Notes: generated by a model from the letters alone, not told the origin. Numbered from the stretch's first letter, positions 20,546 through 45,295 are shown. The stretch is DNA of 64,000 nucleotides from Acetobacteraceae bacterium (GCA_032249615.1 JAVVHH010000001.1:1122-65121), one strand, 5' to 3'. Translations and numbers: made by a program.

Positions 20546-21843
20546 TATTTGGGTCCTGGAAGGGAGGGCGGGGTCAGTGTGCCGGTCGGCCCGAGCGGTG
20601 GGATCTGCCGGCTGGTCCGGTACGCGAGTGCCTCGCCCCAAGTCTGGCTCGGTCCGAAACGGGCGCTGTCGAGCATAGCCTGCGGCAACGGATCTCCCGG
20701 TTCCCAAATCCGGACAGGGATCGATGGTATGCCCTGTTCGCGCGCCACCGCAACGCGGGTGTTGTCGAGCGAGACCACTCCGTCAGGGATGCGCACGGCG
20801 TCGATCGGTGGGCCGTTCCAACCGTTCTCCGCCATCGAACGCCGAAGCGCGTCGGCGCGATTGTTGCCGCCCGCGCTGTTCTGGCTGAAGCGGACTTCCT
20901 TTGGATCGAGGTTTTCGACCGTCTGGCCAGGGCCGACGGCGCGGGCACTCGGAGCGCCACCGCCAGCACGCGATCGGCCTCCTCCTCCTCCAGTGCGGCT
21001 GGTCGTCTCTCCGGTGGACCTTGCCGATCCGGTGCCGCCGTAATCCGACGTTCTGCGGGCCGCGCGGGTGATGAAGATGGTCAAGAACGCCAAGCCCAGC
21101 ACCACGAAGGCGTCCGCCAGGTCTTTTGCCGCCGTGTCGAGATCGGCGTCGTTCTTGGCCGTCGTGGCGTCCGCCGCGGCAGCGGCCATTTGGTAGAGCG
21201 CCCGCACGCCGGCCAGTCCGGCGATGCCGTAAGCGATCCCGGCCAGGACCACGTCCGCAGCCTCGCCGTAGCCGAAGAATTGCGCCGCAGCCAGGCCGGC
21301 GAACGCGGCGACGGTGAGGCCGATCGAAGTGGGCGAGATGAGCTGGAGGAACGCTTCCTTCAGCGGCCCGGACAGATATTTCGGCACCAGCCGCAGCGCC
21401 GCTTCGACGCGCTCGGCATGCGACATGTCGCGCACCGCCTTGGCTTTCGCCGCCGCGACGGTCGGCCCCGGGGCGGCCGGCCCCGGCGCGGCCGCTGGCT
21501 TGAACCCGCTCGCGACCCGGATGTCCGGATCGATCGCGTGTGGGAAATACGCGACCGTGAGACGATGCGACGCAACCGCTGCATTCAGCAGATCGATCAT
21601 GTGCCGTTCCGACAGGCGCTCCGGCGCACCGGGCAGGCCGAGGCGGCGCCAGGCGCTGCGCAGGGTGGCGACGGCGCGCGGGTCGCGAAGCAGGGGCCGT
21701 AGCCGCTCGCCGGCATGCGCGCGGAAGGCGGTCGCTGCCGCGACCGACCCGAACGCGGCCGGCGGCGCCAGCACCAGCGTGCCGCCCGGCAACGGGATCG
21801 CGCACTCCGCCCGGGGCCGCGCGATGGCGATGCTAGTGGTCAA
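20545..21843 (-). CDS. Candidate T6SS effector: unknown N-domain, three TM helices, G/S/R-rich linker, and a C-terminal ParB/Srx-like (predicted nuclease) toxin domain
   Basis: 432 aa. The TM helices are ISPTSIGLTVAAFAGLAAAQFF, VVLAGIAYGIAGLAGVRALY and AFVVLGLAFLTIFIT. The linker reads GGTGSARSTGETTSRTGGGGGRSRAGGGAPS. The C-terminal domain reads LDPKEVRFSQNS...LRRSMAENGWNGPPIDAVRIPDGVVSLDNTRVAVAREQGIPSIPVRI, which are ParB-like motifs. Confidence 0.6.
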   Translation of the reverse strand: MTTSIAIARPRAECAIPLPGGTLVLAPPAAFGSVAAATAFRAHAGERLRPLLRDPRAVATLRSAWRRLGLPGAPERLSERHMIDLLNAAVASHRLTVAYFPHAIDPDIRVASGFKPAAAPGPAAPGPTVAAAKAKAVRDMSHAERVEAALRLVPKYLSGPLKEAFLQLISPTSIGLTVAAFAGLAAAQFFGYGEAADVVLAGIAYGIAGLAGVRALYQMAAAAADATTAKNDADLDTAAKDLADAFVVLGLAFLTIFITRAARRTSDYGGTGSARSTGETTSRTGGGGGRSRAGGGAPSARAVGPGQTVENLDPKEVRFSQNSAGGNNRADALRRSMAENGWNGPPIDAVRIPDGVVSLDNTRVAVAREQGIPSIPVRIWEPGDPLPQAMLDSARFGPSQTWGEALAYRTSRQIPPLGPTGTLTPPSLPGPK

Positions 21844-22567
21844 ACTGATCCATCCCGTACGTATGTATGACGTATTTCAGCGTGGTGCCGTATTGCGGGT
21901 CGGTCGCGTAGACGCCCGTCAGCGCGTCGGCGAAGGCGTCGGGGTCGGCGCGCTTGGCCATGGCGGGCTTGTAGGGTGCGGCCGTCGCCAGCAGCTTGCC
22001 GTGCTGGTCGAAGGCCTCGTTCAGCGACGCGAACTGACGGAACTTGGCCGAAATGGTGATCGACTGCCCGGCGACGACCTCTCGGGTCGCGCTCTCGACG
22101 CTCGGCTGATCGCCGACGGCCTTGATCCCGAACGGGTTGTTGCTGCCCGGCGGCATGGCGGCGCCCCACGCACTCTCCACCGCCCATTGTGCGACGGTTA
22201 CGGAAGCGGGCACGCCCCACTGCTTGAGCGATAGCTTGGCCGCCTCCTCGACCTCCGGCGGCACCTTGCCGAAATGGCCCACGAACGGTTTCTTCGGCTG
22301 CTCGATCAGGGGACGGGAGGCGAGCGAATAGTAGGTGGGGCTACCGGGCTCCACCAGCCCGGTGGGCGGCACCATGTTCATGACGACGGCCTGATAGGCC
22401 TCGATCGCCAGCGTGGTGCCCACGTCTTCCACGCCCGTCGCCGGCACCGGCGAATGGGGCTGCGGCAAGCGCTCGTCCAGCAACGATTGGATGATGAACA
22501 CATCGAGCGGCGAGTTCGCTCCGCCGCGTCCCACCGATTGGGTGATCGGCGGTGCGACCCGGCCCAT
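21833..22567 (-). CDS. Peptidoglycan-binding-like domain plus GH73 N-acetylglucosaminidase (FlgJ-type) protein
   Basis: GH73 motifs are VAQWAVESAWG (catalytic Glu context), SNNPFGIKA and YATDPQYGTTL. The N-terminal PG_binding_1-like pattern is VFIIQSLLD...TTLAIEAYQ...TGLVEPGSPTY. The start is uncertain: ATG 22567, a GTG around 22606 after GGAG, or ATG 22717. The track start at 22741 is TTG. Confidence 0.8.
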   Translation of the reverse strand: MGRVAPPITQSVGRGGANSPLDVFIIQSLLDERLPQPHSPVPATGVEDVGTTLAIEAYQAVVMNMVPPTGLVEPGSPTYYSLASRPLIEQPKKPFVGHFGKVPPEVEEAAKLSLKQWGVPASVTVAQWAVESAWGAAMPPGSNNPFGIKAVGDQPSVESATREVVAGQSITISAKFRQFASLNEAFDQHGKLLATAAPYKPAMAKRADPDAFADALTGVYATDPQYGTTLKYVIHTYGMDQFDH

Positions 22568-22740
22568 CACGTCGGTACTCAGAACGGTCGGGGACGGAAT
22601 CAAGGCCACAACGACAACTCCGGAACCGGGCCGTTCAGCGCACGCCCGCTTGCCAGGCGGTGCGTCAGGAACCCTTTCGCCTCCGTGTGAAAAGCGATAC
22701 CGCTGGTTAACGATCATCGCACGAAGGAGCGTGACCGACA

Positions 22741-25431
22741 ATGCGTGCCGGCAGAAACGCCCTCATGCTCAACCTTCTCATCAGCTTCGTCGGCGTTGCC
22801 CTCCTGGCGGTCTTGGTCTGGTTCCTCGGGCCGTTGGTGCCATGGCTGGATGGGGTCGTCGTGCGCGGGGCGATCTGCCTCGTTCTGCTCCTGGTCTGGG
22901 CCGGTTACGCGGTCTGGACGGTCGTGCGCTGGCGGAAGCAGGGCCGCGAGCTCGAGCGCGGCCTCGTCGCCGCGGCCGCCGCCGAAGAGGTCGGCGCCAT
23001 CCAGGAGCGGTTCGCCGCGGCGATCGCCACGCTGCGGCAAGCCGGCTCCCTCCATTCGCAGCCGTGGTATGTCATCATCGGCCCGCCCGGCGCGGGCAAG
23101 ACGACGGCGCTGCTCAACGCGGGCTTGAGTTTCCCGTTCGCCGGGAAGGCGGGCGGCGCCCACCTGGCCGGCGTCGGCGGGACCCGGGATTGCGACTGGT
23201 GGTTCACCGACGAGGCCGTGCTGATCGACACCGCCGGCCGCTACACGACCCAGGACAGCGACGGCGTCGCCGACAGCGCGGGGTGGGGCGCCTTTCTCGA
23301 CCTGCTGCGGCGCACCCGGCCGCGCCAGCCGCTGAACGGGATCATCGTCGCAATCCCGGCGGTCGAAATCGCCGGCGTTCCCCAAGCGCTGCGCAGCGCC
23401 CATGCCCGCGCGGTCCGCGAGCGCGTGGAGGAACTCAACGGCAAGCTCAAAACCGACCTGCCGGTCTATCTGCTATTTACCAAAGCCGACTTGCTCGCGG
23501 GCTTCACCGAGTTCTTCGACGATCTGGACGCGGAGAGGCGGGGCCAGGTCTGGGGCACCACCTTTCCGCTCAGCCGCCGGCCGCTGCCAGTGCCAGATAC
23601 CGGCAAGGCGCTGGAAGCCTTGGTCGCTCGGCTCGATGAGCGCGTGATCGACCGGCTGCAGGCCGAGCGCAGCCCAGAGCGCCGGCGGCTGATCGCCGGA
23701 TTTCCCACCCAGGTGGCAAGCTTGGTCCCGCTGCTCAGCAGCTTCGTGGAAGAGGCTTTCGGCGGCCACAAGCTGCGCCAGGCGCCGCTCCTGCGCGGCA
23801 TCTACCTGACCTCAGGCACCCAATCCGGCACGCCGGTCGATCGGCTGACCGCGGTGCTGGCGCGCTCCTTCGCGCTCGCGCCCGCCCGCCTGGCCAGCCT
23901 GCGCCCGGAGAAGGGGCGGAGCTACTTCCTGCATCGCCTGATGAGCGACGTGCTGCCGGGCGAGGCCATGTTGGTCTCCTCCCGCCCGGAAATCGTCCGC
24001 CGCCGCAGGCTACTGCGCGGCGCCGGCTACGCGGGCACCCTGCTGGCCACCGCAGCCGCCTGCGCCGCGATCTGGCATGTGCGCGCCGGCAATCTCCAGG
24101 CGCAAGCCGCCGTGGCGCAAGCGCTCTCCGCCCAGGCCGCCGAGGCAGCGCGCCTGCCGCTCGACCCGGTCGCCGACACCGACGCGTTGCGCCTGCTTCC
24201 GTTGCTGGATCAAGCGCAGGCGATGCCGTTACGGACGGCGGTGGAATCGCAGGGTAACCTGCTGGATCAGGACGCCACGCTGGGCGAGATCAGCCGCACC
24301 ACCTACCGCCTCGCCCTGCAACGCGACTTGCTGCCGCGATTGCTGCGGCGGCTCGAGGCGCAGCTCGCCGCGTCCTCCGACCGGCCGGAGGACGCCTACA
24401 ACGCGACCAGGGTTTATCTCATGCTGGGTGGCGCCGGGCCGCTCGATCCGGCGCTGGTGCGGAACTGGTTGCAGCAGGACTGGAACGAGCGCTGGGGCGG
24501 GGCGGCGCAGCAGCGGCAGCGCGATCAACTCGCCCAGCACCTCGACGCGCTCCTCGCGGCGCCGCTGCCTGCCGTCGAGTTGGACGGCGCGCTGGTGGAC
24601 CGCGCCCGTGCCGTGTTCAATCGCGTGTCGCCGGCCGCCCGCGTCTACAGCCGCATCCGCTCCTCCGCCGCCGGGCAAGCAGTTCCGCCCTGGCGCCCGC
24701 GCAGCGCGATGGGGCCGCTCGGCAGCGCCCTGTTCACGGTGAAATCCGGCCGCTCGCTCGACGACGGAGTGCCCGGCCTGTTCACGCCCGCCGGCTACTA
24801 CGACGCCTTCCTGCCCGCGATCGCGCCCACGATCCGCGCCGTCGCCGCCGAGAGTTGGGTGACCGGCAACCCGGTCAAGGCAGACGACGACTCCGCCCGC
24901 CTGGCCGCGATCGAGCAGGAGGTCGACGGGCTCTATCGGGCGGACTTCATCCGCACTTGGGACGGCTTCCTCGACGACCTGCAGTTCACGCCGTTCCGCA
25001 GCGTCGCCCAGGCCGCGCAGGACCTGTACGTGCTGACGTCGCCGCAATCGCCGATCAGGCAGATTCTGGGAAGCATCGCGCTTCAGGTGAGCCTGCCTCC
25101 GCCGCAGGGCGTGGCGGCCGCGCCCAAGCTGCCGGGTCAGCCGTCGCGTGCGTCCGGCCCCGCCGCCGCGATTGCCGCGCATTACCGGCCCCTGATCGAT
25201 CTGGTGGGGCAAGGCCCGGGCGCGCCGCTCGATCAAGCGCTCCGGTCGCTGACCGACCTCCAGCAGTGGTTGGCCAAGCTCGCGGCCGCAGCCATCAACG
25301 TCCCGGCGCCTTCGCCCGGCACCACCGACCCGGCCGCCGCCCTCAGTACAGAAGCGCAACGCTGGCCCGAACCGTTGCGTCGCTGGTTCATGACAATGGC
25401 CGACTCAGCGGCAGCGCTCAGGCCCAAGTAG
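22741..25431 (+). CDS. TssM (IcmF) paralogue lacking the C-terminal IcmF_C/TssJ-binding domain
   Basis: 896 aa, collinear by eye with residues 1 to about 895 of the tssM product at 9144-12653. Shared blocks include VLVWFLGPL, PWYVIIGPPGAGKTTAL, AVLIDTAGRYTTQDSD, VIDRLQAERSP.RR.LIAGFP and DLYVL.SPQSP. It ends at ...RRWFMTMADSAAALRPK, where the full-length protein continues for about 270 aa. An AAGGAG RBS lies 11 nt before the ATG. Confidence 0.9.
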   Translation: MRAGRNALMLNLLISFVGVALLAVLVWFLGPLVPWLDGVVVRGAICLVLLLVWAGYAVWTVVRWRKQGRELERGLVAAAAAEEVGAIQERFAAAIATLRQAGSLHSQPWYVIIGPPGAGKTTALLNAGLSFPFAGKAGGAHLAGVGGTRDCDWWFTDEAVLIDTAGRYTTQDSDGVADSAGWGAFLDLLRRTRPRQPLNGIIVAIPAVEIAGVPQALRSAHARAVRERVEELNGKLKTDLPVYLLFTKADLLAGFTEFFDDLDAERRGQVWGTTFPLSRRPLPVPDTGKALEALVARLDERVIDRLQAERSPERRRLIAGFPTQVASLVPLLSSFVEEAFGGHKLRQAPLLRGIYLTSGTQSGTPVDRLTAVLARSFALAPARLASLRPEKGRSYFLHRLMSDVLPGEAMLVSSRPEIVRRRRLLRGAGYAGTLLATAAACAAIWHVRAGNLQAQAAVAQALSAQAAEAARLPLDPVADTDALRLLPLLDQAQAMPLRTAVESQGNLLDQDATLGEISRTTYRLALQRDLLPRLLRRLEAQLAASSDRPEDAYNATRVYLMLGGAGPLDPALVRNWLQQDWNERWGGAAQQRQRDQLAQHLDALLAAPLPAVELDGALVDRARAVFNRVSPAARVYSRIRSSAAGQAVPPWRPRSAMGPLGSALFTVKSGRSLDDGVPGLFTPAGYYDAFLPAIAPTIRAVAAESWVTGNPVKADDDSARLAAIEQEVDGLYRADFIRTWDGFLDDLQFTPFRSVAQAAQDLYVLTSPQSPIRQILGSIALQVSLPPPQGVAAAPKLPGQPSRASGPAAAIAAHYRPLIDLVGQGPGAPLDQALRSLTDLQQWLAKLAAAAINVPAPSPGTTDPAAALSTEAQRWPEPLRRWFMTMADSAAALRPK

Positions 25432-26045: not shown

Positions 26046-27536
26046 GTGTCGGCAACGCAATCCACTCCGGAATCGGCCGCGGCCGAAACCGTCGAAGGCA
26101 CGAACCTCCTCGACCAGGTCCTTTCGGCGACCAAGCAGACAGCGCCCGATCATGCGCAAGACCTCGTCAAGACGCTGGTCGAACAGGCGCTCGACGGCAC
26201 CGTCACCTTCGACCGCAACCTCACCCGGACCTTTGCGCGCGCGATCGAAGCCATCGACCGCAAGATGTCGGTCCAGCTGAACGCGGTGATGCACGACCCT
26301 AAATTCGTCAAGCTGGAAGGGTCGTGGCGGGGGCTGCACTACCTCGTCATGAACAGCGAGACCAGCACGTCGCTCAAGATCCGCATGATCAACGTGAGCA
26401 AGCGCGAGCTCAACCGCGACCTGACCAAGGCGGTGGAATTCGATCAGAGCCAGCTGTTCAAGAAGATCTACGAGAACGAGTTCGGCACCCCCGGTGGCGA
26501 GCCTTATGGCGCTTTCATCGGCGACTACGAGTGGACCAACCACCCCGACGACATCGAGACGTTGCGCTTGATGTCGAACGTGTCGGCCGCCGCCTTCGCC
26601 CCGTTCCTATCCGCCGCCAGCTCGCAAATGTTCGGTTTCGACGATTGGACTGAGCTGACCAAGCCGCGCGACCTCGCCAAGATCTTCGACACCAGCGAAT
26701 ACATGAAGTGGCGCTCCTTCCGTGACAGCGAGGACAGCCGCTTCGTTTCGCTCGTCATGCCGCGGGTCATCTCCCGCCTTCCCTACGGCGCGGCAACCAA
26801 GCCGATCGACGAGTTCGGCTACGAGGAAGCACCGGCCGATGCGGCCGGGGCCGCCAAGCCGATGGGGCATGGCGAATATTGCTGGATGAACGCCGCCTTC
26901 GTGATGGGCGCGCGCATGACGGACGCCTTCGCGAAATACGGCTTCTGCACCATGATCCGCGGCGCCGAGGGCGGCGGCAAGGTCGAGAACCTGCCGACGC
27001 ACCTGTTCCAGTCGGATGACGGCGATACCGACACGAAGTGCCCGACCGAAATCGGCATCACCGACCGGCGCGAATTCGAGCTCTCCAACCTCGGCTTCCT
27101 GCCGCTCTGCCACTACAAAAACACCGACTACGCCGTCTTCTTCGGCGGCCAGACGGTGCAGAAGCCCAAGAAATACGACCGTCCGGACGCAACCGCCAAC
27201 GCCGCGATCTCCGCCCGGCTGCCCTACATCATGGCGACGGCCCGCTTCGCGCACTACCTCAAGGTCATGGGCCGCGACAAGATCGGGTCGTTCATGGAAG
27301 CGACCGATTGCGAGAAGTGGCTGAACCGCTGGATCGGCAACTACGTCAACGGCAACGAAGCGGCCGGCGCCGAAGCAAAGGCGAAGTATCCGCTGCGCGA
27401 GGCCCGCGTCGAGGTAAAGGAAATCCCCGGCAAGCCCGGTTCCTACAATGCGGTCGCCTATCTCCGCCCCTGGCTCCAAATGGAGGAGTTGACCACCAGC
27501 CTGCGGATGGTGGCGCGCATCCCCGAAAAGGCCTGA
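26046..27536 (+). CDS. tssC: T6SS contractile sheath large subunit TssC (VipB/ImpC)
   Basis: 496 aa with a GTG start; ...[21 protein letters not shown]...[24 protein letters not shown]... Confidence 0.95.
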
Positions 27537-27552: not shown

Positions 27553-29067
27553 ATGGAAAGGCTAGCCGACGCGCCGGCTGAGGACGTCCTCCCGCCATTG
27601 CGGGACGAGGTTTTGGCCGGCCGTTTCTTCGGCCCCCGCGCGGCCGAAGCAACCCACCGCCTCGCCGGCCTGATCGCCGGCGCCTCGGTGTTCCAAACGC
27701 TAAACGAGTGGTTCGGCATGGCGAGGACGGCGGCGCTGGCCGTGTCCCCCGAACACCTGCGCGGCGCCCTCGACCGGGATATCGCCGCGATCGACGACCT
27801 CATCGGCGCGCAACTCGACGCCGTGCTGCACCATCCGCGCTTCGCGGCCATGGAGGGCAGGTGGCGTGGGCTCGATTGGCTCCTGCACAGCTATGATTCC
27901 GGCGCGCGCATCAAGGTGCGATTGCTCACAGTGACTTGGTCCGAGCTCGCTCGCGACCTCGATCGGGCGGCCGAGTTCGATCAGAGCCAAGTGTTCCAGC
28001 GCGTCTACGAGGACGAGTTCGGCATGCCGGGCGGTGAGCCGTTCGGCCTTCTGCTGATCGATCACGAGGTGCACCACCTCGCCGGGCCCGGCGGCGACAA
28101 CGTCTCTACGATCAAGCTGCTGGCGGCGGTCGCCGCGGCCGCCTTCGTGCCGATCGTCCTGCCCGCCTCGCCCCGTCTGCTCGAGGTCGACGGCTTTTCC
28201 GATCTGGCCTATTCGCAGCAGCCCGCTTCGCCGTTGCGGGCACCGAGCCATGCGCGGTGGCGGAGCTTGCGGCGCCATGAGGACATGCGCTTCATCTGCG
28301 TCGCGCTGCCTCGGCTGCTCGCTCGCACCACTTGGCGGGATGACCCGGCGCGCCACGACGGTTTCCGCTACGTCGAATACGCGCCAGACTCCGAGAGCCA
28401 TTGCTGGATGTCCGCCGGCTTCGCTTTCGCCTCCTGCGTCGCGCGCGCCTTCGCCGCGTTCTCGTGGCCAGCCGACGTGCGCGGGGTCGAGGTCGATCGC
28501 GAAGCCGGCGGCGTCGTGCTCGGCCTCCCCGTCGAGACCGACGCGACTGGCCACTGGGCACGGTCCGCGCTCGAGCTCGTGCTGACCGACGGACAGGAAC
28601 GGGACCTGATCGATGCGGGGCTGATGCCGGTCTGCGGCCTGCCCTTCAGCGAGGAGGCGACGTTCAGCGCCGTCCGCAGCCTGCAGGAGCCGGCGCGGTT
28701 GAACACGGAACTCGCGACCGCCAACGCCCACGTGTCGGCGCAAATCAACTCCATGCTCTGCGTGGGCCGTTTTGCACATTACATAAAAGTAATGGGCCGC
28801 GACATGGTCGGCTCGATGATGACTGCGGACGTCATCGAGCGCCGGCTGCAGAAATGGCTCGACAATTACGTCAATGGCAACGCAATCGCCACGCGCGACA
28901 GCCGCGCCAAGGCTCCGCTGACCGCCGGGCGGGTGACGGTTACCGAACGCCTGGGCAAGCCGGGCGTGTTCGGCTGCGTCGTGCACCTGCAGCCGCACTT
29001 TCAACTAGACGACGTGTCGACGACGTTTCGTCTCGTGACCGACTTGGCCGCCCCGGGCGGCCGTTAA
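27553..29067 (+). CDS. Second TssC-family paralogue (ImpD-like)
   Basis: 504 aa; ...VLHHPRFAAMEGRWRGLDWLL...FDQSQVFQRVYEDEFGMPGGEPFG... is parallel to, but diverged from, tssC. Confidence 0.9.
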   Translation: MERLADAPAEDVLPPLRDEVLAGRFFGPRAAEATHRLAGLIAGASVFQTLNEWFGMARTAALAVSPEHLRGALDRDIAAIDDLIGAQLDAVLHHPRFAAMEGRWRGLDWLLHSYDSGARIKVRLLTVTWSELARDLDRAAEFDQSQVFQRVYEDEFGMPGGEPFGLLLIDHEVHHLAGPGGDNVSTIKLLAAVAAAAFVPIVLPASPRLLEVDGFSDLAYSQQPASPLRAPSHARWRSLRRHEDMRFICVALPRLLARTTWRDDPARHDGFRYVEYAPDSESHCWMSAGFAFASCVARAFAAFSWPADVRGVEVDREAGGVVLGLPVETDATGHWARSALELVLTDGQERDLIDAGLMPVCGLPFSEEATFSAVRSLQEPARLNTELATANAHVSAQINSMLCVGRFAHYIKVMGRDMVGSMMTADVIERRLQKWLDNYVNGNAIATRDSRAKAPLTAGRVTVTERLGKPGVFGCVVHLQPHFQLDDVSTTFRLVTDLAAPGGR

Positions 29068-33338: not shown

Positions 33339-33960
33339 TCAAGCGGCCTTTGGCGCCCGGTTCCGCTGCTCGCGAAGGAGCGCGTTAGCGAGGATGGCGA
33401 GCTTTTGCATGGCGGCGATGATCGCGACTTTGGGCGGCTTTCCGGCGGCGAGCAGCGCCTGATACTTGGCCTTCATGTCGGCGTTGAAGCGGATCGCCAC
33501 CAGCGCCGGCATGTAGAGCGCCTGGCGTAGGTGAGCGCGTCCGCCGCGGATGAAGCGTTTGCCGCTGTGCTGTCCTGAGTCGCGAGCGATCGGCGCCAGG
33601 CCGGCGAGGCTGGCGATGCATTTGTTGTCGATCGCGCCCAGCTCGGGCATCTCGATCAGCATCGTCAGCGCGGTCGCCTCGCCGATGCCCGGATGCTGAC
33701 GAGGATATCAAGCCGCGCCTTCAACTCGGCATCGGCCCGGCACAGGGCACGCAGTTCGGCGTCGATTGCAGCGATCTGGCGCTCGATCTGGCGCAGCCGC
33801 TGGTCGGCCTTTTGCAGCGCATCGAGCGCGCCTAAGCGGGCGAGCATGGCGGCGTCGACGGCGTCGGTCTTAGCGCGCTGTCCAATAGCTTCGGCAAAGC
33901 GCCGTGCTTGCAGCGGATTGACCTTGACCATGGGCACGCCGTCCTCGCCGAGCTGGCGCT
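33339..33960 (-). pseudogene. IS110-family transposase remnant (N-terminally truncated, internally shortened, frameshifted)
   Basis: ORF 33339..33662 encodes a Transposase_20-type C-terminus (LAGLAPIARDSGQHSGKRFIRGGRAHLRQALYMPALVAIRFN). ORF 33665..34036 contains VKVNPLQARRFAEAIGQRAKTDAVDAAMLARLG. Adding one base in the C/G run near 33688-33692 restores SIPGIGEATALTMLIEMPELG across the two fragments. The DEDD N-domain is largely missing. Confidence 0.8.
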
Positions 33961-37440: not shown

Positions 37441-38565
37441 GTGTCACCCGACTTGAACCTGGACGTCCCATCGTTGCTCGCGCCGTTCGAGGGCGAGTCG
37501 CCGTGCGGAACGGATCCGCGCGAGGACGCATCCGGGCAGTCTCTCTACTACCGCCTGCGCGATGCGCGCGCGGAGGCCCGCGATGCCGAGCGCCGGGCCG
37601 ATGGCGGCGATGGCGATGACAGCGGCGCGTCGCCGCAGCAATGGCGGACCGTGCGCGAGCTCTCGACCAAAATCCTGCGCGAGCGCGCGAAAGACCTCGA
37701 AGTCGCGGCGTGGCTCACGGAAGCGCTCGTCCGCGAAGCGGGGGTCGCCGGGCTCACGGCGGGAGCCACGATCATGCGCGAGTTGGCCGCCGCGTTCTGG
37801 GACTCGGGATTGTTCCCCACCCCGGACGAGGATGGCATCGCCACGCTCGTCGCGCCGATCTCCGGCCTGAGCGGCGTGACCTCGGAAGGAACGCTCGCGC
37901 AGCCGCTGCGCAAGCAGGTGATGTTCACCCGCCCCGACGGTTCGGAGGTCACGTTCTGGCAATTCGCCCAATCTGTCGAGGTAGAAGGGATCGGCGACGC
38001 CGCCCGCAAGAAGGCGCGTCTCGATGCCGGCGTCCCCGTGTTCAGTGCGCTCGACAAGGAAGCCAGATCCGCAGGCGCCAAGCATTTCGTGGCACTTCGC
38101 GGGCAGCTGGACGAGGCCCTGCTGGCCTGGAACACGATGGCGTCGGTGTTGGACGAGAAAGCGGGGGTCGATGCTCCGTCCACCGGCCGGGTGAAGGAAT
38201 TGCTCGCGAGCTTCGAGGCTGGCATCGGCAGCTATGCGCCGCCCCGCGTCGCGGGGGGAGCCGAGGAGGAGCAGGCAGCCCCCGAGCAAACCACCGCCGA
38301 GCCCGGCGCCGCCGGTCCGGTGCAGATGGTCGCGGCTTCCCGTCCCGTCACACGCGAGGACATGCTCGGCGAGCTCGCGCGCATCGCCGACTACTTCCGG
38401 AAGTCGGAGCCGCAATCGCCGCTCTCGCTCACCTTGGAAGAGGCGGTTCGGCGGGCCCGGTTGAGCTGGCCCGAATTGCTGGCGGAGGTCGTGTCCGACA
38501 CGGCGACCCGCAACGCGATGCTGACGCAGCTGGGGATCCGTCCTCCGCCGCCGCCGGAGGCGTAG
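37441..38565 (+). CDS. tssA: T6SS protein TssA (ImpA N-terminal domain family)
   Basis: 374 aa with a GTG start after GGAG; LLAPFEGESPCGTDPREDASGQSLYYRLRDAR...ERAKDLEVAAWLTEAL is ImpA_N. Confidence 0.9.
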   Translation: MSPDLNLDVPSLLAPFEGESPCGTDPREDASGQSLYYRLRDARAEARDAERRADGGDGDDSGASPQQWRTVRELSTKILRERAKDLEVAAWLTEALVREAGVAGLTAGATIMRELAAAFWDSGLFPTPDEDGIATLVAPISGLSGVTSEGTLAQPLRKQVMFTRPDGSEVTFWQFAQSVEVEGIGDAARKKARLDAGVPVFSALDKEARSAGAKHFVALRGQLDEALLAWNTMASVLDEKAGVDAPSTGRVKELLASFEAGIGSYAPPRVAGGAEEEQAAPEQTTAEPGAAGPVQMVAASRPVTREDMLGELARIADYFRKSEPQSPLSLTLEEAVRRARLSWPELLAEVVSDTATRNAMLTQLGIRPPPPPEA

Positions 38566-38572
38566 CCGCCCG

Positions 38573-41500
38573 TCAGGCGTGCGGTTGCGCGACCGGAAAG
38601 GCGATCAGCTCGCCCGCGGCCTGGAAATGCGCACGCTGGCTGTGGCGGCGCTGGGCCGCGAGCGTGCCGACCCGGTCGCGCACGTAGCGGCATAATTCGA
38701 GGGCATCCAGCACGCCGCCGCTGGCCGGCGCCAGGCCGGTCAGCCCCTCCTTGACCGCGTGCCCGAACACGCCGTTCACGTCATCATAGCCGTCGAGAGC
38801 CTCCTCGTCGGAGCCGGATGCGGTCAACACGTAGCGGCCGGTCTCGTGCCCGAGGCGTCCGCCAACCTGCAGGTCGATCGCGTTGGCAAAGCACGTGTCC
38901 AGCATCAGCAGCGTGCGCGCCGCGCGGATGTTGGACAGCAGCCCGACGATGTCGTCCGCCGGCAGGCAGCCCTCCCCCCGATCGAGCGCGCCGTTCGCAT
39001 CGGTCACATTGGCCGTCACGAAGGCATAGTCGCCGCGGACGGACACGCCGTGACCGGACAGGTAGATCAACACGGCGTCGTCGCGTTCTGCCCGGAGCGC
39101 GATGTCCATCAGCGCGTTGCGCACCGCGTCGCGCGTTGCCGCCTCGTCGCGGAGAACGATCGGGGTGGCCAGCGCATCGTAGGCGCGCGGCAGCACTTGC
39201 GCGATCGTGGTCGCGAAGGTGCTCGCGTCCGACACGGCATAGCGCAGCGCGGGGATGGTCCCCGTGTAGCGGTCGATGCCCGCCGCGAGCACGCGCAGGG
39301 TCCCCGGGGTCGTGGCCGGGGCGGTCGCAGCGGCGGGCTCGCCCGGCGCGGTCAGCCGCCGGGTCACGACCACAGGCGCCGTCCGGTTGAAGCTGTTGGC
39401 GGCGCCGTAAGCGCGGAACTCGATCCGCGCCTCCTTCGACGGCAGGAAAACGATCTGCTCGGCCTGGGCGCCGGGCTTGTGGAACGCGCGTCCGGCGTTG
39501 ATGCCATTGACGAACGCATCGACCATGACCGGCGAGAATGAGGCCGAGACATCCAGCCGGACCCGGACCGCCTGCGTCGCGGGGTCGACCTCCACCGCGC
39601 CGCTGCCACCGGGCAGCGCGCGCTGCAGATCGTGGCAGGCCGCCGGCGCGGGAGGGTCCGGCTGGCTATCCAGCGTCGCGAGAAGGCGGGAGCGGCGCGC
39701 CCGCTCGGACACGTCGTCGCTGCCGCAGATCTGCAGCACCCGGATGGTGGGGGCGGTGTCGGCCGCCGCGGCCTTGAGCGCGGGCGCCACGTTTTGCCCC
39801 GCCTCGGCCCAGTGCGCGCCGGGCCGGGCCATGCCGCTCACGGCGGCCGGATCGTAGAGCTGGCGGTAGTGCTGGTCGATCGTCATCCAGCGGCTGGTCA
39901 GCGCCGCGGGATCGCTGCTGTCGTAGCGCCCGTTCTCGTGGAGGCCGACAAGGGTCTCGCCGCCGAGGTCGCTGTAGGCGAAGCGCCCGTCGTTACGCCA
40001 CGCGACCCATTTGCGGCGGTCCTGCTCGACGAAAACGCCACCGAGTTCGTGCAGCAGTGCGCCGGACGCCAACCCGTACCATCGCAATGTCCCGTCGCCA
40101 TGCGCCGCGACGATGATCCGGCCGTTGCCTGCGAAGCCGACCGCCCAGGCGGGGGTCGCGAGAAGGCGGCGCGCGAGCTCCGCCCCCTTGGCGTCGAGCA
40201 GAACGAGCGTCTCCTGCGTGCCGATCACAATCTGGCCGGTGCCGGGCGCGACGTCGCTCGACCGCACCCGCTCGCCGCGCCGCTCGAGATCGGGCGGCAG
40301 GCGGGCGAGGCCGGGTCCCGGCCTGTGCGAGGCCGTGCGCGGGGACGCCTCGGACAATTTGAGCTGCGCCAAGTCGAACCGCAGCGGTGGCTGGCCGGTC
40401 CCCGCCTGGAACTCCACCGCTTCGCCTGACTCGTCCACCTTCCAGCGGAGGCGTTCCGTCTCGCGGAAATCCAGCCGCTCCGACCGGCTCGCGTCGACGG
40501 TCAGCCGCATGGCGGCCCGCCCGACGGCGACCCGGCCCCAGCTCGCATCGGTGCTGCCGAACACCACCCCGCCGGCCGGGTGCCGCGACAGGCTGGCGAG
40601 ACTATCGTGGGCGACGAGCGCGCTGAGCGGATGGCCCGCCTGGCCGCCCTGCCATGCCAGCAGGAGATTGCCGCCGCCCGCCCTCTCCATCGTTCCGCCG
40701 GCGAACAGCCACTCGGCGCCATCGCCGCCCGTGCCCCAGGCGACGAGCGCCAGATTGCCGGGCCCGAACTCAGGCGGTGGCTCGATCAGGTTCAGGCGGC
40801 TGCTCTTTTGGTCGAGAACGGCGACGCTCCGGCGGTCGGAGAAGCCGATGGCGATGCGGTCGCCCGCCGCCGAAAACGCGAGCGACACCGGGCGACCCGG
40901 CAGGCGGCTTTCGAGCGACGCGGCCTGCAGCCTTGCCTCTTCCGTGACCGGGTAGAGCCGCAGAAGGTTCTTCTGCAGCAGCGTCGCGATGCTGCCCCCA
41001 TCGGGCGAGAAGGCCACCGCAACCATCGGGTTCGAGGGGTCGGCCGCCGACGCGAACCCGATCTTGACCGCGAGATCGGCGTCGTAGCGCAATACCGCGA
41101 GCCCCTCGAGCTCGGTGGCCAGCGCGACCACGCCGCCCCGAGGCGAGACGGCGAGCCCCGGATAGCGCCAGGCGTTGCTGGGCCGGCTGCCGATCGCCCG
41201 CCGGATCGCCCCGGTTGCGACGTCGAAGACGTAGATGATGCCGCGTGGCGCGCTGACCCAGTCGACCGCGGTGACGAACAGCAGCGCCGCATCCGGCGAG
41301 AAATCGAGCGCATCGATGCTGCCCACCTGGCCCTCTCCCAAAGGCGGGTGCCAGCGCCGGAGCAGCCGCCCGGTCTGGCCGCTCCAGATTCGGATGGAGC
41401 GGTCGGCACCGCCCGTGGCGACGAGAGCGCCGTCTGCCGAAACCGCCGTGGCCCGCACGGCGCCGAGATGGGCCGTCGTATCGGGCAGCAGCATCGGATC

Positions 41501-41638
41501 TTGCGAAGGCTGCGGTCTAATTTGTCCCCTAGCCGACGGCGGAAAACCGGCCAGGGCCCCGCCGGCGCAGGCGGCGCCCATCGCGAGGGCCGTGCGGCGA
41601 CGGATGGCGAAAGGGCCAGGGACGTGGGGACCGGTCAT
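38573..41638 (-). CDS. Exported WD40/beta-propeller protein with a C-terminal caspase-like (peptidase C14) domain
   Basis: 1021 aa. The N-terminus FAIRRRTALAMGAACAGGALAGFPPSARG is Tat/Sec signal-like. WD-like repeats include GGADRSIRIWSGQTGRLL and AAHGDGTLRWYGLASGALL. The C-terminal region ...DDAVLIYLSGHGVSVRGDY...RTLLMLDTCFAN carries the caspase His (SGHG) and Cys (DTC) dyad contexts. Confidence 0.85.
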   Translation of the reverse strand: MTGPHVPGPFAIRRRTALAMGAACAGGALAGFPPSARGQIRPQPSQDPMLLPDTTAHLGAVRATAVSADGALVATGGADRSIRIWSGQTGRLLRRWHPPLGEGQVGSIDALDFSPDAALLFVTAVDWVSAPRGIIYVFDVATGAIRRAIGSRPSNAWRYPGLAVSPRGGVVALATELEGLAVLRYDADLAVKIGFASAADPSNPMVAVAFSPDGGSIATLLQKNLLRLYPVTEEARLQAASLESRLPGRPVSLAFSAAGDRIAIGFSDRRSVAVLDQKSSRLNLIEPPPEFGPGNLALVAWGTGGDGAEWLFAGGTMERAGGGNLLLAWQGGQAGHPLSALVAHDSLASLSRHPAGGVVFGSTDASWGRVAVGRAAMRLTVDASRSERLDFRETERLRWKVDESGEAVEFQAGTGQPPLRFDLAQLKLSEASPRTASHRPGPGLARLPPDLERRGERVRSSDVAPGTGQIVIGTQETLVLLDAKGAELARRLLATPAWAVGFAGNGRIIVAAHGDGTLRWYGLASGALLHELGGVFVEQDRRKWVAWRNDGRFAYSDLGGETLVGLHENGRYDSSDPAALTSRWMTIDQHYRQLYDPAAVSGMARPGAHWAEAGQNVAPALKAAAADTAPTIRVLQICGSDDVSERARRSRLLATLDSQPDPPAPAACHDLQRALPGGSGAVEVDPATQAVRVRLDVSASFSPVMVDAFVNGINAGRAFHKPGAQAEQIVFLPSKEARIEFRAYGAANSFNRTAPVVVTRRLTAPGEPAAATAPATTPGTLRVLAAGIDRYTGTIPALRYAVSDASTFATTIAQVLPRAYDALATPIVLRDEAATRDAVRNALMDIALRAERDDAVLIYLSGHGVSVRGDYAFVTANVTDANGALDRGEGCLPADDIVGLLSNIRAARTLLMLDTCFANAIDLQVGGRLGHETGRYVLTASGSDEEALDGYDDVNGVFGHAVKEGLTGLAPASGGVLDALELCRYVRDRVGTLAAQRRHSQRAHFQAAGELIAFPVAQPHA

Positions 41639-42414
41639 GCCTCCCGCACGGCGGCGGAGGGTAGCAGGCTTGAGATGACGTCGAAGGCGCGTTCGCGCAC
41701 GGAGGAATCGACGGTCGCCGCCTGCGTGACGAGCGCCTTTTGGTTGGTCTGCACGGTCCGCCGAACCTGCGCCACCTCGGCCCGGCGCGGCGAGGACACC
41801 GGCTCGGCGCCCAGGCGCGTGTCGACGTCCGCAATCGCCGCTTGGAAACGCTGGGCTCGGGCGCTCAGCTGCGCATTGACGTCACGCGCGACGGCCGCGT
41901 CCGCGAGCGCCTGCGATCTGATCTCGGAGGCTCGCTCGGTCGCCTCCGGGCGCGTGATGCGCCGTGCCCGCAAGTCGCGGCGCAAGTGGGCAATCTCCTG
42001 CCGACGGCAGCGCACGAGACCGTCGAAGCTGGCTGCGAAATCCTGGATCAGTGCCGTGTCCTGATTGGCGCTGGCGGACAGGTCTTGCAGCATCGAGCCG
42101 AGACTGGAGGCGAGCGAGCCGACCGAAGGGATTTGAGAAGCGAGCGAATTGGTAAGGAGCCGGCCGAGCTCGGAGTTGGCGGCCGACGACGCGCCCTCGA
42201 GCGATTGCCGGTTCCGCTCGTTCGAGACTGCGTCCTGGCTGACGGCATAGAAACGCTGCCGCTGGCCCGAGCACGCGCCGTAATCCGGCGGCGGAGCCGG
42301 GATTCCCGAGTTGGCCGGGCCGAACTGTGGGGCGCAGCCGACAAGGCCGGTCGCCCCGATCGCCAACCATGTCGTCGCTGCCGCCACCCGGACGAATCCA
42401 AGCCTGGATGGCAT
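41635..42414 (-). CDS. Hypothetical lipoprotein (helical, Ser/Ala/Gln-rich), overlapping the caspase gene
   Basis: 259 aa with a lipobox-like AIGATGLVGC. Its stop overlaps the ATG of the downstream WD40-caspase gene (4-nt overlap). Confidence 0.75.
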   Translation of the reverse strand: MPSRLGFVRVAAATTWLAIGATGLVGCAPQFGPANSGIPAPPPDYGACSGQRQRFYAVSQDAVSNERNRQSLEGASSAANSELGRLLTNSLASQIPSVGSLASSLGSMLQDLSASANQDTALIQDFAASFDGLVRCRRQEIAHLRRDLRARRITRPEATERASEIRSQALADAAVARDVNAQLSARAQRFQAAIADVDTRLGAEPVSSPRRAEVAQVRRTVQTNQKALVTQAATVDSSVRERAFDVISSLLPSAAVREA

Positions 42415-42487
42415 CGCCTATCTCCCGATCGTTATTGCAACAGAATTGCGCACTCAACCGGTTAAAGGCAACACGGCCGCCGACCCG

Positions 42488-43129
42488 CTACTGGCTCGCC
42501 CAGATGATGCGATGGAGCCAAGCGACCTCCGTCACCTCGAAGCTCCGGTCGCGATGCGCCGGGTTGAGGCTCTTGAGTTCGATGCGCTTGGCCGATTTGC
42601 GGGTGAGCTGCTTGGCCATGACTTCGCCGGCCCAGGTCTTCGCGACCACGCGGTCCCCCCGGCGGATGGGCGCGGACGGTGAGACGACCACCATGTCGCC
42701 TTCGCGGAACACCGGTTCCATGCTGTCCCCGGAGATCTCGAGCGCATAGGCGTTGGGGTCGCCGATCTCCGGCACGCTGACCTCGTCCCAGCTGCCGCCG
42801 ACCGGGAAGCCGCCATCGTCGAAGAAACCGTCGCCGCCCGCCTGCGCGAGCCCGAGCAGCGGGATTCGGTTCGGCAGCCGGATGGAGTTGACGGCCCGGG
42901 GCGAGCCGGTGACGAGCGCGGTGAACGCCTCCATCGACTCGCCGACCGCGCCGAGGACCTTGGCGATGCTCTCCGTGCTTGGCCAGCGAAGCCGGCCGTC
43001 CGGCATCCGGCGCTTGCTCGGATTGAACGTCGTCGCGTCGAGGCCGGACCGTTTGGCCAGGCCGGAGGGCGACAATCCGTGCTCCGCCGCGAGCGTGTCC
43101 AAGGCTCGCCAAATGTCATCGTGCTTCAT
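42488..43129 (-). CDS. HTH (XRE-like) plus S24 LexA/CI-type peptidase-domain repressor
   Basis: MKHDDIWRALDTLAAEHGLSPSGLAKRSGLDATTF is the HTH region. ...YALEISGDSMEPVFREGDMVVVSP...VVAKTWAGEVMAKQL contains the S24 Ser (GDSM) and Lys contexts. It is not a canonical LexA sequence. The ATG at 43129 is preferred over the track start at 43165. Confidence 0.85.
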   Translation of the reverse strand: MKHDDIWRALDTLAAEHGLSPSGLAKRSGLDATTFNPSKRRMPDGRLRWPSTESIAKVLGAVGESMEAFTALVTGSPRAVNSIRLPNRIPLLGLAQAGGDGFFDDGGFPVGGSWDEVSVPEIGDPNAYALEISGDSMEPVFREGDMVVVSPSAPIRRGDRVVAKTWAGEVMAKQLTRKSAKRIELKSLNPAHRDRSFEVTEVAWLHRIIWASQ

Positions 43130-43210
43130 AACAAAGAGTGTGCCTAGGAATTTAGACCGTGGCAACTGGGAAAATGAGCCTGGACGCTCTTGTTTGCGCG
43201 GAGCGAGAAT

Positions 43211-43225
43211 GTTCTTGTTTAGTTC
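43211..43225. promoter_or_regulatory. GTTC-N7-GTTC direct repeat matching the alphaproteobacterial LexA (SOS) box
   Basis: gaatGTTCttgtttaGTTCtcat, 19 nt upstream of ATG 43244 and 82 nt upstream of the divergent repressor start at 43129. Confidence 0.45.
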
Positions 43226-43243
43226 TCATCAGAGGACCGCAGA

Positions 43244-43573
43244 ATGCAACCGTCCATCGAGCCCGCCCGCCCGTTTGCCTCCGTCGAGGCCGCCTGGTTT
43301 TCCACGGCCCGTGCTCTGCAAAGCGGACGGGGTGCGCACGACCACGTCGACGGAGTCCTCCGCTGCCTCGATCGGCTCTATCGCAACCGCCGGATAGAAC
43401 TGCTGCACGCGCGCATTCTGCGGATCTGGGGCGGCCGCGGCATCGCCCCCAACCCGGCCTATCCCCGCGAGCGCAGCGACTGGCGGATTTGGCGGGAAGC
43501 GCTCGACCGCCTTGAAGGCCCGTTGCGCGCCCAGGGCATCGTCGTCCACTGCCAGCCCGCGCCGGCCGAATGA
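43244..43573 (+). CDS. Hypothetical 109-aa protein divergent from the S24 repressor
   Basis: GC3-rich, gene-like codon usage. An AGAGGA RBS lies 7 nt before the ATG. I recognise no domain. Confidence 0.6.
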   Translation: MQPSIEPARPFASVEAAWFSTARALQSGRGAHDHVDGVLRCLDRLYRNRRIELLHARILRIWGGRGIAPNPAYPRERSDWRIWREALDRLEGPLRAQGIVVHCQPAPAE

Positions 43574-43574
43574 T

Positions 43575-44717
43575 TCAGTGCAGCCGGTCCCAGCCGGCGC
43601 CACTGAGGTAGCCGACGCGGCCGGCGGCGAAAGTGGCGACCACCCGGGGACCGGCCGGGTCGACGAGCACGACGTCGGCCCGCTTGCCGTCCTCGATCGT
43701 GCCGCGGTCGTGGAGCCCGGCGGCTGCGGCCGCGTTGGCAGAAACGAGCGCCCAGGCCTGCCCGAGCGACAGCGCCCCGCGATGGCCGAGCGACCAGGCG
43801 GCGGGCAGCATGGCCGGGTAGAAATAGTCGCTGCACAGCACCGTGCAGACGCCTCGCTCGGCAAGCGCGCCGGCCGACGCCCAGCCGAGATGGGAGCCGC
43901 CACGCACGACGTTGGGGCAACCCATGACGACCGCGTCGCCCGAATCCCGCGCGTCCTCCCCCACTGCTTCGGCCATCGGGAACTCGCAGATGCGGGCGCC
44001 GAGGGCCCGGAACCGCTCGCGCACGGCCACGGCGTCGTCGTCGTGGCTGGCCATCGGCAAGCCGTGCCGGCGCGCGGCGGCGGCCAGGCGGGCAGTCGCG
44101 GCGGGAACGTCGGATTGGCCGGCGGCGATCGCCTCCGCAAGCTGGCGGAACTGGGCGACCGGCATGCCGCTGCGCTGGCTGTATTTCGCCGCGCCCGCCG
44201 GCTGCGCCATCTCGCGCAGAACGGAGCCCATGTGGTCGTTGAAGCTGACCAGCCCCACCCGGCCCGCCTCGACATCGGCGAGCGCCACCTCGAGCGCGAG
44301 CAGGTTATAGAGTTCCCACCGCATATGCAGGCGCATGTCGCACACCATGGCCGGGCGGTGCGCCTCCAGCGCCTCGACCATCAGGCGCCAGTTCTCCAGG
44401 CCGCGCAGGCCGGGCTCCCAGGACAGGGTGACGGCGTGCAGGGCCGTGGTGATGCCGTTGGCCAGCAGCTGCGCCTCCGTGTCGCGCAGGGCGAGCGGCA
44501 GCGGGAAGTTCACGCCGGGCCGGGGCTGCATCTGGCGTTCGAACGCGTCGCCATGTAGGTCGACGATGCCGGGCAGCGCGAACAGCCCGCGTGCATCGAA
44601 GTGCCGTCCCGCGCCCGTCCCGCCGAGCCGCAACGTGCCTTGCGCCTCGAGCCGCAACGACGTTTCCGCCACCGTTCCGTCGGCCAGCAGCACCTGGGCG
44701 CCTTGAATGTCGAGCAT
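43575..44717 (-). CDS. PhnM-like amidohydrolase (alpha-D-ribose 1-methylphosphonate 5-triphosphate diphosphatase family)
   Basis: LPGIVDLHGDAFERQ..., SFNDH, ASHDD and VLCSDYFYP motifs. The start at ATG 44717 (MLDIQGAQVLL) is preferred over the track start. Confidence 0.8.
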   Translation of the reverse strand: MLDIQGAQVLLADGTVAETSLRLEAQGTLRLGGTGAGRHFDARGLFALPGIVDLHGDAFERQMQPRPGVNFPLPLALRDTEAQLLANGITTALHAVTLSWEPGLRGLENWRLMVEALEAHRPAMVCDMRLHMRWELYNLLALEVALADVEAGRVGLVSFNDHMGSVLREMAQPAGAAKYSQRSGMPVAQFRQLAEAIAAGQSDVPAATARLAAAARRHGLPMASHDDDAVAVRERFRALGARICEFPMAEAVGEDARDSGDAVVMGCPNVVRGGSHLGWASAGALAERGVCTVLCSDYFYPAMLPAAWSLGHRGALSLGQAWALVSANAAAAAGLHDRGTIEDGKRADVVLVDPAGPRVVATFAAGRVGYLSGAGWDRLH

Positions 44718-44830
44718 GGCCCGTTCTAGCCAGGCGCGGGGCGCCGGACCAGAGTGCGAGCTGCCGTGCAACGGAATTCGGGATTGCTCGTTTCGATCGT
44801 CACAGATCGACCAACCCGAAGGAGCGCTCC

Positions 44831-45295
44831 ATGATTTCGACCCGCCGGACGTTGCTGCCCGCCCTCGCCAGCGTCCTGATGCTCAGCGCGGCAGTGGTCT
44901 CCCGCGCGAACGCCGCCCCCGATCCGGCGGCGCCCGGCCCCGTCACCGCTACGCTCACCCTCAGCGCGCAAGGTGCCGCGGCAGGCGTCGGCTACACCTG
45001 GGGCGACGGCATCCTGATGTTCCACGGCAAGAAATACCGCTTTTCGGTCAACGGCGTGTCGATCGCCGATGTCGGCTACTCCAAGGTGACCGGCCACGGG
45101 CGGGTCTACCACTTGAAGAACGTTCAGGATTTCAGCGGGACCTACGCGGCGACGACCGGGCAGGCCACGGTCGGTAATGGGCTCGGCGGCCAGCTGCTGC
45201 AGAATGCGAACGGCGTGCAGATCCGCATCGACCAGATGACCCGCGGCGCCCGTCTGGAAGGCTCGGTCGGCGGGATCACGCTCACGCTGAAATAA
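44831..45295 (+). CDS. Secreted hypothetical protein
   Basis: 154 aa (the end of track ORF 44591..45295) with signal peptide MISTRRTLLPALASVLMLSAAVVSRANA. The mature part is Gly-rich and beta-type. Confidence 0.75.
   Translation: MISTRRTLLPALASVLMLSAAVVSRANAAPDPAAPGPVTATLTLSAQGAAAGVGYTWGDGILMFHGKKYRFSVNGVSIADVGYSKVTGHGRVYHLKNVQDFSGTYAATTGQATVGNGLGGQLLQNANGVQIRIDQMTRGARLEGSVGGITLTLK

Follow-up and report, generated by a model that had tools for sequence, protein, structure and literature searches.

The 64,000-nucleotide stretch of DNA from an Acetobacteraceae bacterium analysed here (GCA_032249615.1 JAVVHH010000001.1:1122-65121; hereafter the window) carries a type VI secretion system (T6SS) cluster and, facing its terminal gene tssA, two overlapping genes on the minus strand. 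The upstream gene encodes a 259-residue protein with a predicted lipoprotein signal. The downstream gene, referred to below as the caspase gene, encodes a 1021-residue protein with a predicted signal peptide, a WD40-type β-propeller region, a β-sandwich and a C-terminal caspase-like domain of the C14 family. The two genes occur as a pair in many related genomes of alphaproteobacteria, recur at the edges of T6SS clusters in several lineages, and may encode a lipoprotein-tethered protease of the cell envelope. The features of the pair are given below, with positions counted from the first nucleotide of the window.

41635-42414, minus strand: lipoprotein gene, 259 aa (open reading frame, ORF)
42334-42414, minus strand: predicted signal peptide and lipobox, lipoprotein aa 1-27, MPSRLGFVRVAAATTWLAIGATGLVGC (ORF sequence; Cys invariant)
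41635-41638, minus strand: ATGA shared by the lipoprotein stop and the start of the caspase gene (read in the sequence)
38573-41638, minus strand: caspase gene, 1021 aa, with β-propeller region, β-sandwich and caspase domain (ORF, Pfam/NCBIfam, homologue alignments, AlphaFold2 (AF2) model)
41525-41638, minus strand: predicted signal peptide region, aa 1-38 (AF2 helix 12-28 with a low predicted local distance difference test score, pLDDT; homologue N-termini)
39929-41494, minus strand: WD40-type β-propeller region, aa ~49-570 (Pfam, Foldseek, PDB profile search)
39359-39910, minus strand: helical linker, aa 577-626, and β-sandwich, aa 631-760 (AF2 secondary structure, alignment consensus)
38588-39304, minus strand: C14 caspase/metacaspase-like domain, aa 779-1017 (PF00656, alignments, PDB 6w8s)
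39050-39052, minus strand: codon of the predicted catalytic His863; the codon of Cys916 lies at 38891-38893

The first-pass annotation of the window, a reading of the sequence alone, had described a 259-residue lipobox protein whose gene overlaps that of a 1021-residue protein, and both ORFs are present as described. On the minus strand, their junction reads GGGAGGC-ATGA-CC, in which the TGA stop codon of the lipoprotein gene and the ATG of the caspase gene share 4 nt. The purine-rich GGGAGG stretch ends 2 nt before this ATG. The overlap suggests that the two genes are translationally coupled. The GC content at third codon positions (GC3) is 0.83 in the lipoprotein gene and 0.88 in the caspase gene, which is what real genes show at the GC content of this window (~69%). 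A promoter and terminator scan of positions 38300-43500 was uninformative.

The public gene call for the protease (P0001) is 973 residues long, begins at Met49 and lacks the signal-like N-terminus. Translation from the upstream ATG adds a segment (residues 1-38) with an RRR n-region, an Ala/Gly-rich h-region and a SARG|Q c-region. In an alignment of 18 homologues with 25-56% identity, a basic-plus-hydrophobic N-terminus precedes the PPxxPxLRIExGxHTG motif in all of the sequences except P0012, which is N-terminally truncated. Most of them carry Leu, Ile or Phe in place of Met49, which is not conserved. Among 74 full-length homologues retrieved from genomes, a signal-like N-terminus, defined as a hydrophobic 12-mer with a Kyte-Doolittle mean above 1.5 and basic residues ahead of it, was present in 71 of the 72 with N-terminal data, and these segments mostly end in AxA|Q-like sites. 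On inspection, no Shine-Dalgarno-like sequence was found ahead of Met49. Because the homologue N-termini are conserved, Met49 is variable and a ribosome-binding site is missing at Met49, the upstream ATG is the predicted true start, and export is a conserved predicted property of the family. The GC3 of codons 1-48 is 0.71 as compared to 0.88 for the whole gene, which is neutral on the choice of start codon. The N-terminal data indicate that the public gene call is probably mis-annotated, and this has a practical side: by starting 48 codons too late, the call masks the export signal.

The earlier proposal that the protein is targeted to the envelope is thus borne out by the signal-like N-termini of its homologues, and the contrary case of a true start further downstream is not. 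The proposed twin-arginine (Tat) character of the signal fared less well: the window protein does contain the arginines (IRRRTALA), but RR occurs in only 31 of the 74 homologues, and many of the others have plain Sec-like signals. The h-region of the window protein is the least hydrophobic of the family. It may use the Tat route, which is uncertain because the twin-arginine feature is not conserved.

Downstream of the signal region, Pfam detects WD40 repeats (PF00400, 39.4 bits; cutoff 27) together with several other β-propeller families, and a Peptidase_C14 domain at residues 784-923 (PF00656, 26.7 bits; cutoff 21.4), so that the WD-type repeats and the C-terminal caspase-like domain recognized at first reading both lie above the Pfam thresholds. 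The nearest NCBIfam model, NF047832 ('caspase, EACC1-associated type'), scored 68 bits (E 7.5e-19) and so fell short of its cutoff (140), and the generic caspase model of PADLOC matched at E 2.3e-11. An AF2 model built from 21 sequences (pLDDT 80.9; predicted TM-score 0.81) lays the protein out as a signal helix (residues 12-28), propeller strands (~49-570), a linker (577-626), a β-sandwich (631-760) and an α/β caspase domain (779-1017). When this model was compared with the PDB by Foldseek, the matches were tandem WD40 propellers, namely 2ymu, Utp21, β'-COP and Aip1 (E 1e-17 to 1e-21), and a PDB profile search returned 2ymu at E 3.6e-96. The propellers dominate the Foldseek search with the full-length model, and the folds of the caspase and β-sandwich domains were not independently confirmed by it. 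The most conserved motif of the family, VAAHGDGTLRWY, lies in the propeller region (residues 508-520), with D515, G516, R519 and W520 invariant. The alignment consensus also contains two Cys positions within the linker/β-sandwich region, which may form a disulfide.

The caspase domain contains both expected catalytic contexts, YLSGHG (H863) and LDTCF (C916), as had been noticed from the sequence. In homologue alignments of 18-21 sequences, D804, H863, G864 and D914 are invariant, while C916 is invariant in 18 sequences and at least 90% conserved in 21. A loss of the His/Cys dyad in orthologues is not observed. Searched alone against PDB sequences, the caspase domain gave marginal matches to metacaspase-4 (E 0.086) and MALT1 (E 0.44). 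The match to Arabidopsis metacaspase-4 (PDB 6w8s), being marginal, served for residue correspondence only; it places SGHG on SGHG, LDTC on SDSC and AVSD(804) on GCVND. For T. brucei MC2, substrate coordination has been assigned to Cys92, Asp95, Ser159 and Asp211, with the two Asp residues accommodating a basic P1 residue (PMC6426788). D804 and D914 of the window protein, the latter two residues before the catalytic Cys, occupy the positions of Asp95 and Asp211. Since the His/Cys dyad and both S1 Asp residues are conserved, the domain is likely to be catalytically competent, and from the metacaspase-like acidic S1 positions we infer a preference for Arg or Lys. It resembles an active enzyme of the metacaspase/orthocaspase type.

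The partner protein carries the lipobox LVGC, whose Cys27 is invariant in nine close homologues and is followed by Ala at +2. With Ala at this position, the lipoprotein is most likely anchored in the outer membrane. Cys48 and Cys136 are likewise invariant in these homologues, and the conserved Cys residues of both proteins would fit an oxidising periplasm. A conserved Arg-rich core spans residues 129-190. The AF2 model of the lipoprotein (pLDDT 76) is an all-helical bundle with four long helices, and Foldseek searches of the PDB with this model returned only generic helical bundles, all at E >0.1. Longer homologues of ~330 residues have an SH3_3 domain at the C-terminus in addition to a YMGG glycine zipper; the window protein was compared with one of these longer forms (locus L077, positions 8744-9757).

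The two genes are found together well beyond the window. By tblastn against plasmids, three Azospirillum species and Pseudoroseomonas cervicalis were found to encode full-length caspase homologues that are ~35% identical. In the two plasmid loci that were inspected (Azospirillum and Pseudoroseomonas), a gene annotated as 'YMGG-like glycine zipper' precedes the caspase gene, and the products of both are homologues of the window lipoprotein (E 1e-13 and 2e-6). Scanning a single genome from each species brought in another 80 loci, for the most part from Acetobacteraceae, Azospirillaceae, Geminicoccaceae and Elioraea. When all ORFs of these loci were searched iteratively with a hidden Markov model, 67 of 81 loci proved to have a same-strand homologue of the lipoprotein gene immediately before the caspase gene, and most of the genes at this position encode a lipobox. 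Among the 14 loci without it, eight are truncated at the locus start, and the other six hold the most distant homologues, for example those of Gallionella and Pyrinomonadales. The lipoprotein-protease pair is, as judged by homology, a conserved module; the linkage proposed for the two genes holds. The protease family is large. With the C-terminal 422 residues as a query against clusters at 50% identity, 50 representatives matched at E<=1e-30 and 1499 at E<=1e-10; most of the best matches are 1000-1100 residues long, with the matched part at the C-terminus.

Neighbour clustering across the 81 loci showed that, besides T6SS genes and a second caspase gene, the frequent neighbours of the pair belong to ubiquitous transporter families, and no other specific functional system recurred. 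The second C14 gene encodes an exported-looking protein of ~550 residues with Peptidase_C14 and DUF4384 domains. It is absent from the window and lies near the pair in 13 loci (L001, at 6118-7773 on the minus strand, L006, L016, L021, L023, L028, L031, L037, L048, L056, L063, L064 and L071), which suggests a larger periplasmic caspase system in some lineages. At locus L083, whose caspase homologue (P0004) is 54% identical, the pair lies on a plasmid-like contig with ParA, Rep3, toxin-antitoxin, integrase and resolvase genes, and a CHASE2-domain gene follows it. The CHASE2 gene was considered as a part of the module and rejected, as it did not recur in other loci. In the other closest relatives, the pair stands beside amidohydrolase and ABC-transporter genes.

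On the other side of the lipoprotein gene, the first-pass annotation had placed an HTH-S24 repressor gene, and a gene of 225 codons with a Peptidase_S24 match (81.9 bits) is indeed found there (42488-43165, minus strand). It is not a recurrent neighbour of the pair across related loci, and was dropped from the module. About 2 kb beyond the pair, positions 44591-45295 (plus strand) encode a small exported-looking protein with a weak match to EipA (18.9 bits, below the cutoff); EipA is the envelope integrity protein A.

The opposite flank of the pair is formed by the T6SS cluster.

37441-38565, plus strand: tssA, the last T6SS gene on this side, converging on the caspase gene (TIGR03363, 212.6 bits; ImpA_N, 103.9 bits)
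7904-37330, both strands: the rest of the T6SS cluster, pppA to clpV (NCBIfam and Pfam scans)

The stop codons of the caspase gene (38573-38575) and tssA (38563-38565) are separated by 7 nt, in agreement with the initial description. With window T6SS proteins as queries, 15 of 83 loci were found to have T6SS genes no more than 10 kb from the pair. The linked loci fall into at least five arrangements, in which the pair adjoins vgrG, tssL, pppA or tssA.

L017, L030, L033, L054 and L068, with L021 similar: lipoprotein and caspase genes, then vgrG-DUF6931-PAAR-tagH-tssK-tssL-tssM, gaps 65-107 bp
L002, L027, L029 and L038: the same vgrG order, with a small opposite-strand gene between
L001, Azospirillum lipoferum: lipoprotein and caspase genes, then tssL-tssM, gap 199 bp
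L053: tssM...pppA, then lipoprotein and caspase genes; L004: the same, with an FHA-ABC transporter gene between
L055: pair divergent from vgrG
Window: pair convergent with tssA

Where the pair and the T6SS genes share a direction, they are separated by 65-199 bp. In a neighbour-joining tree built for the protease, the T6SS-linked loci occupy at least seven separate places, interleaved with unlinked relatives. If ~1% of genes are assumed to fall within 10 kb of a T6SS cluster by chance, the binomial probability of seven or more linked lineages among 40 is ~1e-7, which is a rough estimate. The linkage to T6SS is facultative and recurs far above chance. The transporter gene at L004 (6586-8934, plus strand) encodes a 782-residue fusion of FHA domains and an ABC transporter with an ATPase and an ABC-2 permease; the order pppA, FHA-ABC transporter, lipoprotein, caspase was observed at L004 only.

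Taken together, we propose that the pair is an envelope module in which a lipoprotein tethers a periplasmic, Arg/Lys-specific protease, and that this module has been repeatedly recruited as a T6SS accessory; we put the probability of this reading at roughly 0.5. The lipoprotein would be anchored in the outer membrane with its helical bundle in the periplasm, and the ~105-kDa protease, translationally coupled to it, would be exported to the same compartment. There, the WD40 propeller platform and the β-sandwich could present an active protease, metacaspase- or orthocaspase-like, with cleavage after Arg or Lys. By analogy with known lipoprotein-protease pairs, the lipoprotein may bind the protease, hold it at the inner face of the outer membrane and possibly gate it, and its conserved Arg-rich helix might itself be a site of cleavage. 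The propellers may recruit envelope protein substrates or a damage signal. In most genomes the module stands alone, and in others it would have been recruited to the edges of T6SS clusters of the FHA/PP2C type. This repeated recruitment suggests an accessory role in those genomes, and possibly in that of the window. At a T6SS, the module could serve as a T6SS-associated accessory (TAG) that uses proteolysis to tie T6SS assembly or activity to the condition of the envelope, with a function like that of TagQ and TagR.

In a more specific and rather doubtful form of this proposal, the pair would be a proteolytic envelope sensor: the lipoprotein would restrain the protease, damage or attack would activate it, and cleavage would switch the T6SS on or off. 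The target might be a part of the TssJLM complex, the OmpA-like domain of the long-form TssL, or an inhibitor. The sensor would then replace the kinase-activating inputs of the TagQRST or RtkS type in alphaproteobacterial TagH/PppA clusters without a visible PpkA.

Several observations weigh against a T6SS-linked envelope protease. About 80% of the loci (about 68 of 83) lack T6SS genes within 10 kb, and the closest relatives of the window protein (54-71% identity) are among those without T6SS genes nearby. Where the linkage exists, the pair is always at the edge of the cluster and never inside it, and in the window it converges with tssA, so that co-transcription with the T6SS genes is not possible there. 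The claim of an association with the T6SS edge thus stands as a recurrence above chance, but not as a fixed property of the pair. Neither the 64-kb window nor seven linked loci yielded a Hanks-type Ser/Thr kinase motif; the kinase partner is accordingly missing there or encoded elsewhere, and a TagQR-like route via PpkA has no visible target. As for the proteins themselves, the score of the caspase domain is only modestly over the Pfam threshold, and the window lipoprotein is the short form, of a ~260-residue subfamily, which lacks the SH3 domain and has neither a Pfam match nor a glycine-zipper match.

The points on linkage are equally what would be expected if the pair were a general module for periplasmic proteolysis or quality control, independent of the T6SS and adjacent to it because both occupy shared variable regions or plasmids. 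The second C14 protease with DUF4384, a recurrent neighbour in 13 loci, also fits such a module, and we regard this explanation as a substantial possibility, short of even odds. It accounts less well for an adjacency that arose independently at four different cluster ends and at no fewer than seven tree positions, with operon-like gaps of 65-107 bp or a shared divergent promoter region in several cases, when chance would give ~1% per genome and no other system recurs by the pair.

Two further explanations concern the place of action of the protein, and both were rejected on the conserved export signals. If Met49 were the start and the apparent signal peptide an untranslated leader, the protein could be a cytoplasmic cell-death or immunity caspase of the STAND/WD40 or CHAT-like kind. 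The public call of 973 residues, the lower GC3 of the first 48 codons (0.71 against 0.88) and the nearest NCBIfam model, a conflict-system caspase type though below its cutoff, all lean this way, and bacterial metacaspases, many of them cytoplasmic, are combined with WD40 more often than with any other partner domain. However, signal-like N-termini in 71 of 72 homologues, the replacement of Met49 by Leu, Ile or Phe, the missing ribosome-binding site at Met49 and the overlap of the upstream ATG with the preceding stop codon make a cytoplasmic enzyme very improbable, as does its obligate partner being a lipoprotein. Neither an NTPase, a gasdermin nor another defence partner accompanies the gene; in PADLOC, only the generic caspase model matched the protein, the lipoprotein and the S24 protein had no match, and no system-specific defence match was obtained. 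A place beside vgrG or at the margin of a cluster is, on the other hand, typical of effector-immunity pairs, and about 10 loci have the pair immediately next to vgrG, with one partner being a periplasmic lipoprotein like many immunity proteins. An effector-immunity pair, or an orphan immunity locus, at this position is nevertheless scarcely credible: T6SS effectors are loaded in the cytoplasm and to our knowledge carry no Sec or Tat export signals, whereas such signals are predicted on both proteins and conserved. In addition, the pair lies upstream of vgrG and not downstream with the DUF6931 and PAAR genes, is mostly found with no T6SS nearby, and contains no PAAR, Rhs, MIX or other delivery domain in the Pfam scan.

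The proposed envelope module shares features with several known systems. Bacterial caspase homologues have mostly been discussed as cytoplasmic enzymes of cell death and immunity. The window protein resembles WD40 orthocaspases and metacaspases in its C14 domain, its predicted His-Cys dyad and its two acidic S1 residues. It differs from WD40 orthocaspases in the reversed domain order, with the propellers N-terminal and the caspase C-terminal, and in the absence of a NACHT/STAND NTPase, as well as in its predicted export, its obligate upstream lipoprotein and its recurrence at T6SS cluster edges. Among the accessory domains of prokaryotic metacaspases, WD40 ranks first, and some of these proteins carry N-terminal transmembrane or signal segments (PMC3501461), and a Tat-like signal has been described on a cyanobacterial pseudo-orthocaspase (PMC6426788). 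Given these precedents, an exported C14 protein is not unprecedented.

The pairing of a lipoprotein with a protease recalls, by analogy, the logic of NlpI-Prc in E. coli and LbcA-CtpA in P. aeruginosa, in which an outer-membrane lipoprotein directs a bound periplasmic protease to envelope substrates. Prc and CtpA are S41 serine peptidases and their adaptors are tetratricopeptide repeat (TPR) proteins, whereas the protease described here is a predicted C14 cysteine peptidase and its lipoprotein a predicted helical bundle without a PDB match.

Among T6SS components, the nearest counterparts are TagQ, an outer-membrane lipoprotein, and TagR, a periplasmic protein, which are thought to report envelope damage to the H1-T6SS of P. 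aeruginosa (PMC13584744). Like TagQ-TagR (with TagS/TagT), the pair would combine a lipoprotein and a periplasmic partner at the edge of an FHA/PP2C-type T6SS cluster, and the layout of L004, with an ABC transporter between pppA and the pair, resembles that of tagQRST-ppkA-pppA. Unlike TagR, which is a COG1262 protein of the FGE-sulfatase type and not a protease, the 1021-residue protein contains no such domain and has no sequence relationship to it. Most copies of the pair, in contrast to tagQRST, lie away from T6SS clusters, and no PpkA-type kinase is present in the window or the seven linked loci. The resemblance to TagQ and TagR is one of analogy only, and does not make the pair a member of that family. 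TagX, TagL, TagV, TagM1, TagU and RtkS are other envelope accessory factors of T6SSs that are found in some lineages only (PMC13584744). The pair would share with them a location in the envelope, a position in or beside T6SS clusters and a lineage-restricted distribution; caspases, WD40 proteins and general proteases are absent from this list. The terms caspase, WD40, propeller and protease do not occur in a review of T6SS accessory factors from 2026 (PMC13584744), and in the literature searched we found no account of this architecture, of its lipoprotein partner or of a caspase-type T6SS accessory gene.

A caspase family of more than 100 clusters at 50% identity, with predicted export and an obligate lipoprotein, would bring caspase-type proteolysis into the Gram-negative envelope. 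Its independent recruitment to T6SS clusters in Acetobacteraceae, Azospirillaceae and their relatives makes it a testable candidate for a T6SS accessory factor. If the proposal is true, the module could help to explain how FHA/PP2C-type T6SSs without a visible kinase are controlled.

The T6SS cluster of the window is complete by NCBIfam and Pfam scans. It begins with pppA, tssM, tssL (long form), tssK, tssJ, tagH, PAAR, DUF6931 and vgrG, continues with a gene for a 432-residue protein of no assigned function, a glucosaminidase gene, a truncated tssM-like gene, tssB, two copies of tssC, tssE and tssF, and ends with tssG, an IS110 fragment, clpV and tssA. The PppA-like PP2C phosphatase is encoded at 7904-8707 and TagH, with its FHA domain, at 15890-17275, both on the minus strand. 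In a megablast search of the region against plasmids, clpV was the sole match.

The second tssM-like gene (22741-25431, plus strand) encodes 896 residues that match TIGR03348 over positions 2-929 of 1168; as the match stops at 929, this TssM-like protein is truncated and lacks the C-terminal periplasmic part. It is divergent from the glucosaminidase-domain gene (21833-22741, minus strand) and the gene for the 432-residue protein (20545-21843, minus strand), upstream of vgrG. The tandem TssC paralogues (26046-27536 and 27553-29067, plus strand; TIGR03355, 695 and 380 bits) are reminiscent of the TssC40/TssC41 pair of Agrobacterium-type clusters. The IS110-family transposase fragment between tssG and clpV (33339-33662, minus strand) retains 107 residues of the C-terminal part only. 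Directly after pppA lies a gene for an outer-membrane transporter of the ShlB/FhaC type (TpsB; 6024-7811, minus strand), with large ORFs near it that have no Pfam match (1601-3676 and 4532-6067, plus strand). The TpsB gene and these ORFs may constitute a two-partner secretion locus abutting the T6SS cluster.

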